Of a DNA stretch of 38,206 nucleotides, positions 4,884 through 32,524 are shown piece by piece. A model generated the notes under the pieces. That model was not told the DNA's origin. It did no database searches and saw only the letters and a list, made by a program, of their open reading frames with translations. The translations under genes were made by a program, and so were the position numbers. Numbering within the stretch: position 1 is the stretch's first letter; every line of letters begins with the position of its first letter. Source of the DNA: a virus; the IMG/VR virus record IMGVR_UViG_3300013945_000001, positions 1 through 38,206 of that record; one strand, written 5' to 3'.

Positions 4884-5644
4884 TGCAATATCGTTTCAGA
4901 GATTTACAACCTACGCTTAGAGATACATTTGATGAAATTCCAGAGGAAGGCTTTGCATTCGGTGATTTCGATAGCCGAAAAGCAGGGCTTTTTTTAGTTG
5001 AACGCACGGCTCCTACGCCAGAAGAAAAAGAGATCACCGAGAGTGTGCCTTATATGCAGGGTGTTTACGATTTTTCAATGTATCAAAACGAGCGCTTTTT
5101 CGAAAATCGAGAAATCACGTATAAGTTAGTTATCCCAATCGGGGTCTATCACGATCGAAAAGGCGTTGAACAAGATATCAAGCGACAGCTAATGCCTTTG
5201 GGACGACAAGCGTTAATTGACACTCACGAGGAAGTCTATTACTGGATTGGCAAATGTAAAAGCGTTGAAGCTGACGACGATTCAGAAAAAGGACTGCTGA
5301 CCGTCACGGTAGTATTTGATTGCTACCCGTTTGCCTTTACAAACAATCTCGAAGGTGCAGACGTTTGGGATGAAGTTTATTTCGACCATTGGATTTGGCA
5401 ACCCGTCAAATTTAATGTTAACGGAAAGCAAGGTATCCAGTTAGAAAATATAGGGTCGCATAAGGTGATGAGTAATTTTAAAGTGACTGGCAAAGTGACT
5501 ATTAAAGGTGCGTTTGGCACGAAAACCTTAGATGATAAGACGGATGAAAAATCGTCAATCCCAATTCAGGTAGGGACTAACAAGATAACGCTTGATGGCA
5601 AAGGCACGATTTGGTTTAAATTTAGAAGAGAGGAGCTTTTGTAG
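4883..5644 (+). CDS. Distal tail protein (Dit-like)
   Basis: ATG overlaps the tape measure stop (TAATG). The position between the tape measure and Tal genes supports the call. Confidence 0.65.
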   Translation: MQYRFRDLQPTLRDTFDEIPEEGFAFGDFDSRKAGLFLVERTAPTPEEKEITESVPYMQGVYDFSMYQNERFFENREITYKLVIPIGVYHDRKGVEQDIKRQLMPLGRQALIDTHEEVYYWIGKCKSVEADDDSEKGLLTVTVVFDCYPFAFTNNLEGADVWDEVYFDHWIWQPVKFNVNGKQGIQLENIGSHKVMSNFKVTGKVTIKGAFGTKTLDDKTDEKSSIPIQVGTNKITLDGKGTIWFKFRREELL

Positions 5645-29783: not shown

Positions 29784-30218
29784 ATGACATTATTACCAGA
29801 ATTAGATGATGAAAAGACAATCAAAAACGTTAAACGTTTCTTCGAAAAAGAATTTCCAACCTTGCAAAACATGGCCCATATTTCATTTGTCGACATCAAG
29901 TCGCCGGTTATTAGTGGCATGCCGGTAGCTCACGGCATGGATAATGGATCGGAAACTAAAGCAACTCTGCATGTCTATGCTAAGAACGTGTTACACAAAG
30001 TAATAATGGCGTGTGGTGGCTTAGATTGTCGGCATCGCAAAATTTTAGAGCTACGCTGTTTTAAAGAGCTAACGTGGCTTGAAATATATGAAGTAACAGG
30101 CTACGGAAAAACTAGGGCGCAAGAGCTGCTAAATGAATCGTTTATACAGTTCGCGTGGGCGTTTGCAGACGTTGACGATTTGCGAGTGTTCAAAAGCGAA
30201 CGCTTAGCGACCGATTAG
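29784..30218 (+). CDS. ArpU-family late transcriptional regulator
   Basis: 144 aa with a sigma-like C-terminal HTH (LTWLEIYEVTGYGKTRAQELL). Its position upstream of the terminase genes supports the call. Confidence 0.7.
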   Translation: MTLLPELDDEKTIKNVKRFFEKEFPTLQNMAHISFVDIKSPVISGMPVAHGMDNGSETKATLHVYAKNVLHKVIMACGGLDCRHRKILELRCFKELTWLEIYEVTGYGKTRAQELLNESFIQFAWAFADVDDLRVFKSERLATD

Positions 30219-30262
30219 CGGACACAGGGCGACCGCAAAATGCTGTATATTGGTAGTATCGA

Positions 30263-30361
30263 AAGATGTAGGGCAGATGGTTCGACAGACTTCCGTTTCA
30301 ACAAATTCAATCAGGGAAGGCATGTTACGTTTGTTGCAAGGTTCGATTCCTTGCTGTCTTA
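30263..30361 (+). ncRNA. tRNA-like module 1: canonical T-arm and acceptor-like pairing, but no canonical D or anticodon arm
   Basis: T-arm CAAGG-TTCGATT-CCTTG (30337-30353). AAGATG (30263-30268) pairs with TGTCTT (30355-30360) as 4 Watson-Crick (WC) plus 2 GU pairs. Confidence 0.4.
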
Positions 30362-30483
30362 TTACCGGTGTGTTTGACGTCGCAGTTGGTAGCTACGGAT
30401 AAGCAAACACAAAAGAAGTCTGGTGGAGATACATAAAGGCCAGCATAAGTCCTACTCGGAAACCATCGGGGACAACTACCAGG

Positions 30484-30616
30484 TGAGATGTGGCGGAATA
30501 GGTAGACGCTATAACACAATGACAGAGACTGTGAACCTATCGGAGCGGTGTTAAGATGATGGGATTTATTCCCTATGCCGACACAGTTATGTAAGGTGCA
30601 AATCCTTACCATCTCA
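30484..30616 (+). ncRNA. tRNA-like module 2: tRNA-Leu-like D-arm, 7-bp acceptor and 6-bp T-stem, with a 70-nt insert in place of the anticodon loop
   Basis: TGAGATG/CATCTCA (30484-30490/30610-30616). D-arm region TGGCGGAATAGGTAGACGC. ATAAC/GTTAT (30511-15/30586-90). T-arm GTAAGG-TGCAAAT-CCTTAC. Confidence 0.45.
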
Positions 30617-30630
30617 TTCTTATAACTAAG

Positions 30631-30661
30631 GTCACATGACGCTATCGTTGTGTGGCTTTTT
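30631..30661 (+). terminator. Intrinsic terminator directly upstream of the terS ribosome-binding site
   Basis: 11-bp stem 30631-30641/30646-30656 (3 GU pairs), loop CTAT, followed by TTTTTATTTT. Confidence 0.7.
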
Positions 30662-30693
30662 ATTTTGTCCTAAAGGAGGTGTGGTGATATGTA

Positions 30694-31185
30694 ATGAAAC
30701 TAACAGCTAAACAAAAGAAGTTTGCGGATAACTACATCAAGACTGGCAATGCTACTCAATCGGCAATTGATGCTGGTTATAGCAAGAAGACAGCGCCAAC
30801 GATTGCAAGTGAAAACCTAATAAAACCTAACATTAAAGCGTACATCGATAAAAAGATGCGAGAGATTGAATCAGACCGCATTATGGGGGCACAGGAAGCT
30901 TTAGAGTTCCTCACTAATGTAGTTAGAGGCGAGGAGCTTGAAACGAAAGTGGTCACCACACAGTACGATGTAAGCACAGTGAAGGTGCCGGCTGATGTTA
31001 AAACCAAGATTAGCGCTGCTAAAGAGATTCTTAAACGTTATCCTGACAACGATAAGTTACTTGAACAGCAGATTAGGAAGCTTACCGCCGAAGCTGATAT
31101 AAGTGAGTACAAAGCCAAAGTAATGACCGATGCTACAAACTTAGAAGATAAGACAGTGATTGTGAGTGATTTGCCAGATGAATAA
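30694..31185 (+). CDS. terS: Terminase small subunit
   Basis: SD AAAGGAGGTG. N-terminus MKLTAKQKKFADNYIKTGNATQSAIDAGYS is typical of this family. Confidence 0.85.
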   Translation: MKLTAKQKKFADNYIKTGNATQSAIDAGYSKKTAPTIASENLIKPNIKAYIDKKMREIESDRIMGAQEALEFLTNVVRGEELETKVVTTQYDVSTVKVPADVKTKISAAKEILKRYPDNDKLLEQQIRKLTAEADISEYKAKVMTDATNLEDKTVIVSDLPDE

Positions 31186-32524
31186 GGTAATTAAACTTAG
31201 TGACTTAATACAACCGCACTTTTATAAGTTTTTTAATTCCAACAAGAATTATTTCATTCTTAAAGGCGGGCGTAATTCGTTTAAGTCCAGTACCATTAGT
31301 CTTAAGCTGGTTATGATGATGAAGCAACAGATTCAGCGCAATCACAAAGCCAACATAGTTTGTGTTCGTGAGAATGCTGTTAATTTACGTGATTCAGTGT
31401 TTAACCAGATTAAATGGGCAATTGATATGCTGGGCATGACTAGTGAGTTTAGATCTAGTGTTAGTCCTATGAAAATTGAACACATACGTACAGGTTCTAC
31501 TTTTCGATTCTATGGTGCTGACAATCCAGAAAAGCTTAAGTCGAACACGATTAGCAATGTAATTGCACTTTGGTACGAAGAAATAAGCAACTTTAAGAGC
31601 GGTGAAGTATTTGACCAATCTAACAGTACTTTTGTACGTCAAAAAAGCCCGTTCGTAGATGCCGTTAAGATATTCTACTCGTTTAACCCCCCTAAAAGTA
31701 AATATAATTGGGTTAATCAATGGGCAGAAGAGATGGCAGGAGACCAGGACTATTTCATTGATACGTCTGATTACACTATGGATAGGCTAGGTATTATCCA
31801 GCCTGAACAACTGCGCATGATTGAGAAATACAAGCGGAATGACTATAACTATTATTCATGGCTGTACTTAGGTAAATCAATCGGTATCGGTAACAATGTG
31901 TACAACATGAAGTTGTTCCATAAATTGCAAGAGATACCAACCGATGATGAGATTAAATCATTAGCCGTTGGTTTGGATGCGGGGCACATTAATTCGGCTA
32001 CGACAGCCGTTGTTATTGGCTTGACGTCTAAAGGCAAAGTGATCGTGTTAGACACTTATTACTATAGTCCGCACAACAAAGCAAATAAGAAGGCGCCTAG
32101 CGACTTAGTCCCCGAGATTAAGTCTTTTTTAGATTCCGTACAAAAACGGTATGGGAACAAGCGATACATCAAGTTAACGATTGATTCGGCAGAAGGTGCT
32201 ATGCGAAACGAATTCGTAAAGGAGTTTAATTTGCGTTGGCATGGAGTGATTAAGAAAAAGGAAGCTGAAATGATTGACTTCGTGTCTAACTTATTGGCTC
32301 AAGGACGAGTTTATTATTTGGATAATGAAGACAATAAAATCTTTATTGACCAGCATGAACGTTATTCATGGGACGATAAGACTTTTGAACTGGACGAACC
32401 TAAAGTTATTAAAGAAGACGACCATACGTGTGACGCATTTAAGTACATCATTATGGACCTAGCTTCCAAACTAGGACTTAAGCAAGGCAATAAAGCCGCA
32501 GTATTGAGAAATGATTATATTTAA
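31178..32524 (+). CDS. terL: Terminase large subunit (PBSX/XtmB-type, headful)
   Basis: Walker A-like motif GGRNSFKSS. The size and position fit a large terminase subunit. The start could instead be the GTG at 31166. Confidence 0.85.
   Translation: MNKVIKLSDLIQPHFYKFFNSNKNYFILKGGRNSFKSSTISLKLVMMMKQQIQRNHKANIVCVRENAVNLRDSVFNQIKWAIDMLGMTSEFRSSVSPMKIEHIRTGSTFRFYGADNPEKLKSNTISNVIALWYEEISNFKSGEVFDQSNSTFVRQKSPFVDAVKIFYSFNPPKSKYNWVNQWAEEMAGDQDYFIDTSDYTMDRLGIIQPEQLRMIEKYKRNDYNYYSWLYLGKSIGIGNNVYNMKLFHKLQEIPTDDEIKSLAVGLDAGHINSATTAVVIGLTSKGKVIVLDTYYYSPHNKANKKAPSDLVPEIKSFLDSVQKRYGNKRYIKLTIDSAEGAMRNEFVKEFNLRWHGVIKKKEAEMIDFVSNLLAQGRVYYLDNEDNKIFIDQHERYSWDDKTFELDEPKVIKEDDHTCDAFKYIIMDLASKLGLKQGNKAAVLRNDYI

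Follow-up and report, generated by a model that had tools for sequence, protein, structure and literature searches.

We analyzed a 38,206-nt stretch of viral DNA (IMG/VR record IMGVR_UViG_3300013945_000001, positions 1 to 38,206; hereafter, the window), which is a prophage of Pediococcus acidilactici; records of this species contain the exact ArpU and TerS proteins of the window. A gap of 475 nt separates arpU (29784-30218, plus strand), a 144-aa open reading frame (ORF) encoding an ArpU-family late transcriptional activator of the Ltr superfamily, from terS (30694-31185, plus strand), which encodes the small terminase and is the first late gene. An original prediction, made from the sequence without database searches, proposed that 30219-30661 holds a ~440-nt structured noncoding RNA (ncRNA) with tRNA-like units. 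Our results agree that the region is structured on the plus strand; however, it is not a single RNA, as it consists of three independently evolving modules together with a promoter-like box and a terminator. The gap is a plus-strand RNA locus built from exchangeable modules, in the order ArpU-type direct repeats, promoter-like box, a tRNA mimic lacking a D arm (M1), a pseudoknotted connector (MX), a scaffold derived from tRNA-Leu (M2), and terminator. Sequence comparison places M2 in a large family, widespread in phages of Gram-positive hosts (Bacilli), of strand-specific, conserved, and modular RNAs, predicted to mimic tRNA while carrying a hypervariable domain, that follow late activators or lie in tRNA operons. 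We found no description of this ncRNA family in Rfam 15 or in the full-text literature searched, a library that is incomplete.

M2 (30484-30617, plus strand) has every feature of the M2-type family: a covarying 7-bp acceptor stem, UG, the D arm GCGGAAUAGGUAGACGC, a variable insert, AUG, and a T arm with a UGCAAAU loop and an extra G-C pair, with no anticodon arm. In the window, the acceptor stem is formed by 30484-30490/30610-30616 and is followed by U8 and G9 (30491-30492), the D arm (30493-30509), a 79-nt insert that takes over from the anticodon and variable arms (30510-30588), the T arm (30591-30609), and a discriminator U (30617). The acceptor, D, and T arms of a tRNA core are all present, as are nucleotides U8, A14, G18, G19, A21, U54, C56, and A58. 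A genuine tRNA-Leu(UAA) from an Erysipelotrichaceae metagenome-assembled genome (L138) has exactly the same 5' half as M2 (acceptor, U8 and G9, and D arm), and we therefore assign M2 an origin from tRNA-Leu; a pattern search of genome contigs hit nothing but a real host tRNA-Leu. The Rfam tRNA model aligns to M2 from end to end at 13.2 bits (threshold 29), with a 75-nt insert replacing 17 anticodon-arm positions. A chimera of the M2 scaffold and the anticodon and variable arms of the real tRNA-Leu is called as tRNA-Leu by ARAGORN, and native M2 is not called.

Every motif listed in the original prediction is present in the window at the coordinates given there, including the T-arm-like hairpin at 30591-30609, which is the T arm of M2. 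The assignments of these motifs fared less evenly. Three plus-strand TWGGTAG sequences (at 30250, 30386, and 30499) had been described as D-loop-like, and three within 256 nt compares with ~0.04 expected for a single strand (whole window, both strands: 14 matches vs 6.7 expected). Only the sequence at 30499-30505, in M2, is a D loop; the one at 30250 is part of the conserved promoter-like box, and the one at 30386 is a hairpin loop that pairs with 30476-30481.

We scanned IMG/VR with a T-arm pattern, which identified at least 120 loci; the family figures here and below refer to the matches listed. These include 148 instances, 137 of them with a D-arm motif 41-327 nt upstream, and at least 119 distinct sequences. 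Across 75 family scaffolds (inserts removed, window first), 95.6% of cells are paired, and six of the seven acceptor pairs show all Watson-Crick types. Changes on both sides of a pair affect 274 cells vs 80 in shuffles (0 of 500 shuffles reached the observed value), and slid registers drop to ~40% pairing. The D stem covaries as well, from C-G to U-A in nine sequences; T-stem columns are partly constrained by the search pattern, and the acceptor and D stems are the fair test. Nucleotides U8, A14, G18, G19, and A21 are invariant or nearly so. The helix 30484-30490/30610-30616, one of three long-range helices in the original prediction, is the M2 acceptor stem, and its support from covariation is very strong.

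The insert is the variable part of the element. Inserts range from ~20 to >200 nt, and those of the 119 sequences fall into 77 unrelated clusters; one acceptor sequence pairs with up to eight insert clusters, and eight clusters occur with more than one acceptor. Inserts are shuffled among scaffolds. Close relatives of the window repeat this on a smaller scale, with a nearly invariant M2 scaffold and at least seven unrelated insert types of ~23 to 150 nt. The ~103-nt inserts of L004 and L141, whose scaffolds are unrelated, are distant homologues with compensated stems (GAAAGTA/TACTTTC vs GACAAC/GTTGTT), and some insert types are therefore conserved structured domains. Eight loci (L144, L154, L178, L179, L191, L192, L205, and L217) have the D loop interrupted by a further large insert that separates G18 from G19 (GGAAUAGA[...]AGUAGACGC), and L144, L178, and L217 have a ~100-nt domain in common there. 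At L219 (~4895-5135, minus strand), a tRNA-Lys identified by ARAGORN at 4968-5040 appears, by coordinates, to be nested in the insert of an M2-type element.

We considered whether M2 is an intron-containing tRNA-Leu and rejected this candidate, as there are no conserved anticodon-stem halves at the insert and inserts are as short as ~20 nt. Scans of 13 loci at relaxed thresholds gave no match to group I intron or ribozyme families, and no anticodon-type loop was evident by eye in the inserts inspected. A helix closing the insert ends is not enriched (4.43 bp vs 4.32 bp in shuffles).

Like bacterial tRNA-Leu, M2 has the acceptor geometry, U8 and G9, the D arm GCGGAAUAGGUAGACGC, a T arm with U54-A58 and C56, and, in many family members, a discriminator A (A in 56 sequences and U in 51). 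Unlike tRNA-Leu, it lacks an anticodon arm and a regular variable arm, and its UGCAAAU loop, which is invariant in the family, has G at position 55; an extra G-C pair, likewise invariant, lengthens the T stem and gives a 13-bp acceptor/T stack. A further difference is that CCA is almost never encoded (2 of 119 sequences). A 3' end without encoded CCA is the type of substrate handled by RNase Z and the CCA-adding enzyme in the tRNA maturation of Firmicutes.

M1 (30269-30362, plus strand; ~94 nt), delimited by reading aligned sequences, is a tRNA mimic without a D arm. Its acceptor stem is 30269-30275/30355-30361 (alternative register, 30270-30276/30354-30360), and the D stem is replaced by GAUGGUUCGAC at 30276-30286. 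A long irregular arm (30287-30335) enters directly 5' of the T arm (30336-30354), which has a canonical UUCGAUU loop. Both GGTTCGA sequences that had been predicted as T-loop cores are present; the second, at 30340, is indeed the T loop of M1, whereas the first, at 30279, belongs to the D-region substitute and is not a T loop. Pairing in the acceptor and T stems reaches 95.5% among 19 distinct relatives, and six pairs changed on both sides. None of 500 shuffles reached the observed percentage paired, number of double-change pairs, number of double-change cells, or covariation score; the fifth measure, further pair types, was reached by 115 of 500. MAFFT failed to align the inner arm structurally, and our description of that arm comes from direct reading. 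The acceptor and T arms are the only tRNA arms found in M1, which scores 15.1 bits against the Rfam tRNA-Sec model (threshold 47) and 16 bits against mascRNA, in both cases well short of the threshold. Two relatives (L020 and L047) have true tRNA genes in the M1 slot.

Between the two tRNA mimics, MX (30367-30482, plus strand) is a structured pseudoknotted connector identified from compensatory changes. It comprises helix P1 (30369-30376/30404-30411), the P2 hairpin (30378-30397) with loop UUGGUAG at 30386-30392, the P3 hairpin (30418-30444), the P4 hairpin (30449-30473) with a loop that includes CUCGGAAACCAUC, and a pseudoknot between 30387-30392 and 30476-30481. P1, a second helix of the original prediction, has GC to AU changes in relatives, and it is fully compensated in the divergent MX of L017 (GTTAAAG/CTTTAAC). 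The third predicted helix, 30420-30426/30476-30482, did not hold: in relatives, 30420-30423 covary instead with 30440-30443 (CTGG/CCAG to CCAG/CTGG or ATGG/CCAT), and the pairing of the P2 loop with the tail in the pseudoknot replaces it. Comparison with relatives therefore recovered compensatory changes for two of the three helices. P3 changes from CG to AU, UA to CG, and GC to AU. In L017, P2 (TGAAT/ATTCA) and the pseudoknot (TGGTAG/CTACCA to AGTAGG/CCTACT) are likewise compensated; the MX of L017 is not structurally alignable by MAFFT, and its helices were read directly and not counted. Among the loci examined, MX occurs only in close relatives, and a search with the loop pattern CTCGGAAACCATCNNGG returned mostly chance matches and few further relatives.

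The folds of M1, MX, and M2 are strand-specific because of their many G-U pairs; together with the covariation, these plus-strand G-U pairs bear out the prediction of a structured ncRNA. The folding energy of the sequence is unremarkable relative to shuffled sequence on both strands (z = 0.14 on the plus strand and 0.11 on the minus strand), and therefore the case for structure rests on comparison rather than on thermodynamics. ARAGORN identified no tRNA or transfer-messenger RNA (tmRNA) gene in the window at default thresholds, and a lowered threshold gave only a permuted tmRNA call. Using Rfam 15, we found no family in the window at gathering thresholds; for the whole gap at E ≤ 10, there was no GOLLD, ROOL, tmRNA, or tRNA match, only terminator-driven noise and the 15-bit tRNA-Sec match, and narrower scans gave solely tRNA-clan matches below threshold. 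The view that the tRNA-like units, which lack an anticodon arm, are not ordinary tRNAs is thus upheld by both tools.

Three 7-nt direct repeats, 11 nt apart, can be read at 30206-30234 on the plus strand (AGCGACC at 30206-30212, AGCGGAC at 30217-30223, and GGCGACC at 30228-30234), overlapping and following the arpU stop codon. The direct repeats bound by Ltr (RinA/ArpU) proteins immediately follow the ltr gene, ahead of the late promoter for terS, and specify the cognate activator (PMC3753634); the window has such ~7-nt repeats distal to its ltr-type gene, and we presume from their sequence and placement that they are ArpU binding sites. Relatives with other ArpU types (L006, L016-L019, L021, and L024) have different repeats in the same 11-nt phase and the same place (TGGAGTAAA, TTGCAAG/TTGAAAG, GTACAA...). 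The repeat sequence changes with the ArpU type while the box downstream is constant, which looks like covariation of activator and operator.

The box TATATTGGTAGTATCGAAAG (30246-30265, plus strand) is presumed to be the -10 and start region of the late promoter. It is conserved as TATATTnGTAnTATCGAAAG across ArpU types that are 54-97% identical and have differing upstream repeats, and similar strings (TATTATCGA and TTGTCGAAAAG) lie 5' of the RNA in Leuconostoc phage LN34 and phage H1-Guo. The box was not called in a sigma-70 promoter scan; it lacks a -35 element, as would suit a promoter that depends on an activator. We infer that it is the late promoter.

At the other end of the gap, an intrinsic terminator lies at 30628-30667 on the plus strand. 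A scan placed it at 30628-30659 (30631-30661 in the original prediction), with a stem of 14 pairs followed by a U tract; four of the pairs are G-U, and the hairpin is strand-specific on that account. The U tract ends ~10 nt 5' of the terS ribosome-binding site. The terminator is kept in close relatives (with a compensatory variant in L016), always directly 5' of the ribosome-binding site of the next gene, whether HNH or terS. The space from the terminator to terS is too short for a promoter, and therefore late transcription must read through the terminator.

Gene assignments at the locus were straightforward. In P. acidilactici, the protein exactly matching the window ArpU is annotated as an ArpU-family regulator, and a 97% identical homologue matches NCBIfam TIGR01637 (3.8e-16) and phrog_248 (2.5e-27). 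TerS matches Pfam Terminase_2 (2.3e-30) and is followed by terL (31166-32524), which matches Terminase_3 and Terminase_3C. Among GenBank phages, a blastn search with the gap matched only the 5' end of terS, and megablast with 18 kb of the window gave no match. We retrieved IMG/VR relatives as 13 loci via ArpU and 13 via an exact 28-mer from the gap. In these, the element is always 3' of an arpU-like gene (34-97% identical), and the packaging module 3' of the element varies (HNH and several terS/terL types). BLAST alignments among relatives show a mosaic of conserved blocks interrupted by unrelated stretches.

In sibling Pediococcus prophages, M1, the box, and the terminator form a constant frame, and the cargo between them varies. 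In L010 (3660-5237), MX and M2 are replaced by KwaB and KwaA of Kiwa (1e-96 and 1e-45), and in L013 (3715-5667), they are replaced by RmrT and RmrA, a RosmerTA-like pair (7e-50 and 1e-112); a Tad2-like anti-Thoeris gene lies between M1 and M2 in L007 (3583-3882; 4e-23). Given this cargo, the RNA modules sit in a hot spot for defense and counter-defense. The Rmr cassette of L013 appears to have its own promoter, TTGAAC-17-TATAAT.

A 30-mer from the T arm matched 242 GenBank phage records at a permissive E-value; nine were inspected, eight of them by sequence. Seven records contain complete elements: Listeria phages vB_LmoS_188, LP-101, and B054, Leuconostoc phage LN34, Enterococcus phage EFDG1, Lactiplantibacillus phage H1-Guo, and Bacillus phage phi3Ts. 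Each has six or seven acceptor pairs, the phi3Ts count assuming one extra C (the default register of the script scored three). Beneath the T-arm match there is no annotation in six of the seven records; in the remaining one, that of B054, the match overlaps a small hypothetical ORF (gp75). In LP-101 (L261, 1188-1643), the order is RinA, repeats, an rliG-like piece, rli62 (112 bits), the element, an mcrA motif (77 bits), and HNH; phage A118 has the same leader with RliG and Rli62 and no M2-type element. The gap between Ltr and terS in Listeria phages is a mosaic of RNA modules. The LN34 element has its own sigma-A-type promoter (TTGACT-17-TATAGT) and a terminator. In phi3Ts (L263, ~1390-1540), a genetically tractable SPbeta-like phage, the element follows an HBsu-like gene, with acceptor AATGCGG/CCGCATT and T arm GGGAGG/CCTCCC, and a DUF3800-VIII RNA motif lies 1.2 kb beyond it.

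Several of these elements lie among tRNA genes. In EFDG1 (KP339049, L259), an unannotated phage tmRNA at 976-1326 (Rfam, 140.6 bits) lies inside a tRNA array, and an M2-type element with a 150-nt insert (1326-1530) starts 2-3 nt after it; a tRNA-Gln identified by ARAGORN in L208 is within a few nt of the element end. Lactobacillus phage ATCC 8014-B2 (L264) has a cluster in the order ROOL (263-835, 139 bits), tRNA-Leu, tRNA-Met, T-arm match, tRNA-Gly, and terL. Only the M2-type T arm and 3' acceptor strand are present there (~1490-1545), with the 5' scaffold absent within 330 nt, and this copy is perhaps truncated or interrupted by a very long insert. Of the 151 family members among the matches listed, 54 lie within 1 kb of true tRNA genes, which in every case share their strand. 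The nearest upstream ORFs on the same strand (n = 98) include 20 ArpU and 14 RinA, plus sigma-like and Alt-like activators, and a terminator-like hairpin occurs within 120 nt downstream of 31 of 128 members vs 15 of 384 control windows. M2-type elements look like members of tRNA operons and not like leaders specific to terS.

We compared the modules with described RNAs. Like the tRNA-like domain of tmRNA, M1 has an acceptor followed by an unpaired D substitute of the GGUUCGAC type, a long helix directly 5' of the T arm, and a canonical T loop; its 5' part resembles the tRNA-like domain of the EFDG1 tmRNA (GGGGTAGTTTTGGTTTCGAC), and that tmRNA also stands immediately 5' of an M2-type element, as M1 stands 5' of M2. 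This coupling of a tmRNA-like module with an M2-type element was found only in close relatives of the window and in EFDG1. Unlike tmRNA, M1 is only ~94 nt long and lacks both pseudoknots and a tag reading frame, and relatives do not conserve G3-U70 (the third acceptor pair in 19 relatives is A-U in 11, G-U in 5, and G-C in 2). The tmRNA model RF00023, which gives 140.6 bits on EFDG1, has no match in the window at E ≤ 10. The YrlA and other bacterial Y RNAs, mascRNA, and the MHV68 tRNA-miRNA transcripts are similar in principle, each being a non-decoding RNA in which a tRNA-like fold recognized by tRNA enzymes is joined to another domain. Some YrlA genes are reportedly phage-borne; however, YrlA closes the acceptor and opens the anticodon side, whereas M2 has a hypervariable insert, RF02553 has no match in the window, and arpU, terS, and terL, the genes examined, do not encode Ro/Rsr.

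The original prediction pointed to the niche of GOLLD and ROOL, and this was apt, since ATCC 8014-B2 has a true ROOL in a tRNA cluster with an M2-type T arm. ROOL and GOLLD also occur in Lactobacillales phages beside or nested with tRNAs, and the L219 insert appears to hold a tRNA-Lys as GOLLD can. M2-type RNAs differ in being much smaller and defined by a tRNA core, with no match in sequence or structure; RF03087 and RF01998 were absent from the window at gathering thresholds and at E ≤ 10 with the tool that finds ROOL in ATCC 8014-B2, and by Rfam the modules belong to neither class. RliG and Rli62 (RF02415 and RF01486) occupy the same position between an Ltr-type activator and the first late gene, but their sequences and folds are unrelated to the window modules; neither model matched the window, and both were found at the equivalent position in LP-101 and vB_LmoS_188. 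The arrangement of late promoter, short structured RNA, and terminator requiring read-through recalls lambda pR'-6S RNA-tR' and StxS of Stx phages, in which the terminated product can act as a trans small RNA; StxS is a short by-product RNA of this kind (PMC7547250). Those phages use the antiterminator Q where an Ltr/ArpU activator is found here, and their leaders are not tRNA-like.

The explanation to which we assign about an even chance of being correct is that these are late RNAs processed by tRNA enzymes and acting in trans in conflict between phage and host or between phages. ArpU bound to the repeats would fire the late promoter, with transcription starting at ~30255-30260 and running through M1, MX, and M2. 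The host enzymes RNase P (5' of the acceptor stems) and RNase Z with the CCA-adding enzyme (3') would excise the modules as stable small RNAs. The tRNA core would serve as a scaffold for processing and stability, and possibly as bait for tRNA-binding proteins, with the insert as the working part; the excised RNAs could act in trans, for instance by inhibiting immune effectors, tRNA-directed or otherwise, or by serving as decoys for them, and polymerase that passes the terminator would express terS and the rest of the late operon. Excision by tRNA enzymes fits the tandem placement with tRNA and tmRNA genes and the absence of encoded CCA. The structural prerequisites for a substrate of these enzymes are present, namely the acceptor/T-arm minihelix, the elbow nucleotides, and the lack of CCA in 117 of 119 sequences. 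Lysogens express Listeria RliG, and plaques form without it (PMC7397523), which fits an accessory role.

A number of points weigh against this trans-acting explanation. The promoter, the processing sites, and RNA stability are predicted from sequence, for the window as for the family. Recognition by some tRNA enzymes could be impaired by the G55 T loop and the 13-bp acceptor/T stack. Antisense matches longer than 13 nt were not found in the window. In the wider family, the 89 downstream genes listed include only about five weak or scattered matches to defense or anti-defense functions other than HNH, and PtuB matches near family members are ordinary HNH endonucleases. In addition, M1 is kept where MX and M2 are replaced by protein genes, a pattern that suits action of M1 in cis no less than in trans, and the position of the terminator ~10 nt before the terS ribosome-binding site argues for a regulatory meaning in late-gene expression.

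The main alternative is that the gap is a cis-acting leader of the late operon, working by attenuation or antitermination in the manner of lambda pR'-6S RNA-tR' with Q, HK022 put RNA, or StxS, with the tRNA-like folds as 5' stabilizers or as elements for processing or polymerase modification in terS expression. The placement of the terminator directly before the first late gene holds in all close relatives, the frame of M1, box, and terminator persists though the cargo differs, a late activator precedes the M2-type element in ~35-45% of the family members listed, and RliG, in the manner of lambda 6S or StxS, is produced as a short RNA by lysogens. However, tRNA arrays of lytic phages also contain M2-type elements, and others stand alone with a promoter and terminator, distant from the start of any late operon. 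Defense cassettes can replace MX and M2 with the frame intact, so terS can be expressed without these modules; hypervariability of the insert would not be expected in an RNA acting on the conserved RNA polymerase, and RliG can be lost without effect on plaque formation. We regard the cis-leader explanation as doubtful, if still a serious competitor. Because no promoter fits between the terminator and terS, read-through or antitermination is needed in any case, and trans and cis roles may coexist. The position immediately upstream of terS, the mosaic blocks, and the exchange of cassettes at conserved flanks would also suit an element that works as DNA, such as a packaging site (pac or cos), a linker for recombination between phage modules, or a hot spot for insertion, with hairpins that are incidental or operate in DNA. 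This is very unlikely given that the G-U pairs of the stems become A-C mismatches on the other strand and that M2-type elements are also found in tRNA arrays and next to different packaging systems.

Decay of tRNA genes, the other course considered in the original prediction, would make M1 and M2 pseudogenes of a phage tRNA cluster that are alike only through recent recombination. The real tRNA-Leu sequence of the M2 5' half, the true tRNAs in the M1 slot of L020 and L047, and the failure of ARAGORN and Rfam to accept either module as a tRNA are in keeping with this. Neutral decay destroys pairing, however, whereas acceptor pairs are compensated and pairing is retained across the 75 scaffolds; the tertiary nucleotides and the T loop are kept from Listeria to Bacillus hosts, and one insert type is kept with compensated stems in L004 and L141. 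The covariation and the size of the M2 family contradict simple decay, and the 75-scaffold covariation largely refutes this explanation, to which we assign a very small probability. Still smaller is the chance that the modules are a divergent member of a described class (ROOL, GOLLD, tmRNA, YrlA, RliG/Rli62, or T-box). The niche is common to ROOL, tmRNA, and RliG/Rli62, and M1 resembles the tRNA-like domain of tmRNA, but Rfam 15 yielded only the sub-threshold tRNA-clan matches while the same scans readily found ROOL, tmRNA, rliG, rli62, and mcrA elsewhere. Least probable of all is that the gap encodes small proteins. ORFs of 43-95 aa do exist there, namely plus-strand ORFs of 43-50 aa and an antisense ORF of 95 aa (30325-30612) without a Pfam match; none is conserved, which agrees with the original prediction that the region is noncoding. 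In the 10 relatives scored, the longest ORF in any frame varies from 29 to 67 aa and shifts frame, and the differences among relatives include whole-block swaps and indels whose length is not divisible by three.

Returning to a role in trans, we propose more tentatively, as something possible yet rather unlikely, that the M2-type elements are tRNA-scaffolded cassette RNAs of phages of Bacilli. The tRNA-Leu core would hijack the tRNA maturation and stability machinery of the host and display exchangeable domains (decoys, inhibitors, or prophage defense RNAs; in some members with another domain in the D loop, and once apparently with an entire tRNA) that are swapped at the conserved arms, in the hot spot that also holds Kiwa, RosmerTA, and Tad2. 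If true, such cassettes would be the RNA counterpart of protein anti-defense islands.

If the M2-type RNAs are transcribed and processed, they would constitute a class of RNA that is common but has been overlooked in phages of Listeria, Enterococcus, Bacillus, and lactic acid bacteria, including phages already under genetic study (phi3T/SPbeta-like phages, LP-101, and EFDG1). Mimicry of the tRNA tertiary fold would then be a portable scaffold for the expression and stability of diverse RNA domains, and an RNA layer would be added to the defense and counter-defense hot spot upstream of the packaging genes. The M2 scaffold would also be a natural design for stable RNA expression in Gram-positive bacteria. 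The placement of the terminator raises the question of whether Ltr/ArpU activators also make RNA polymerase resistant to termination, and the family as a whole may offer a handle on why ROOL, GOLLD, RliG, and phage tmRNA cluster with tRNAs near late operons.

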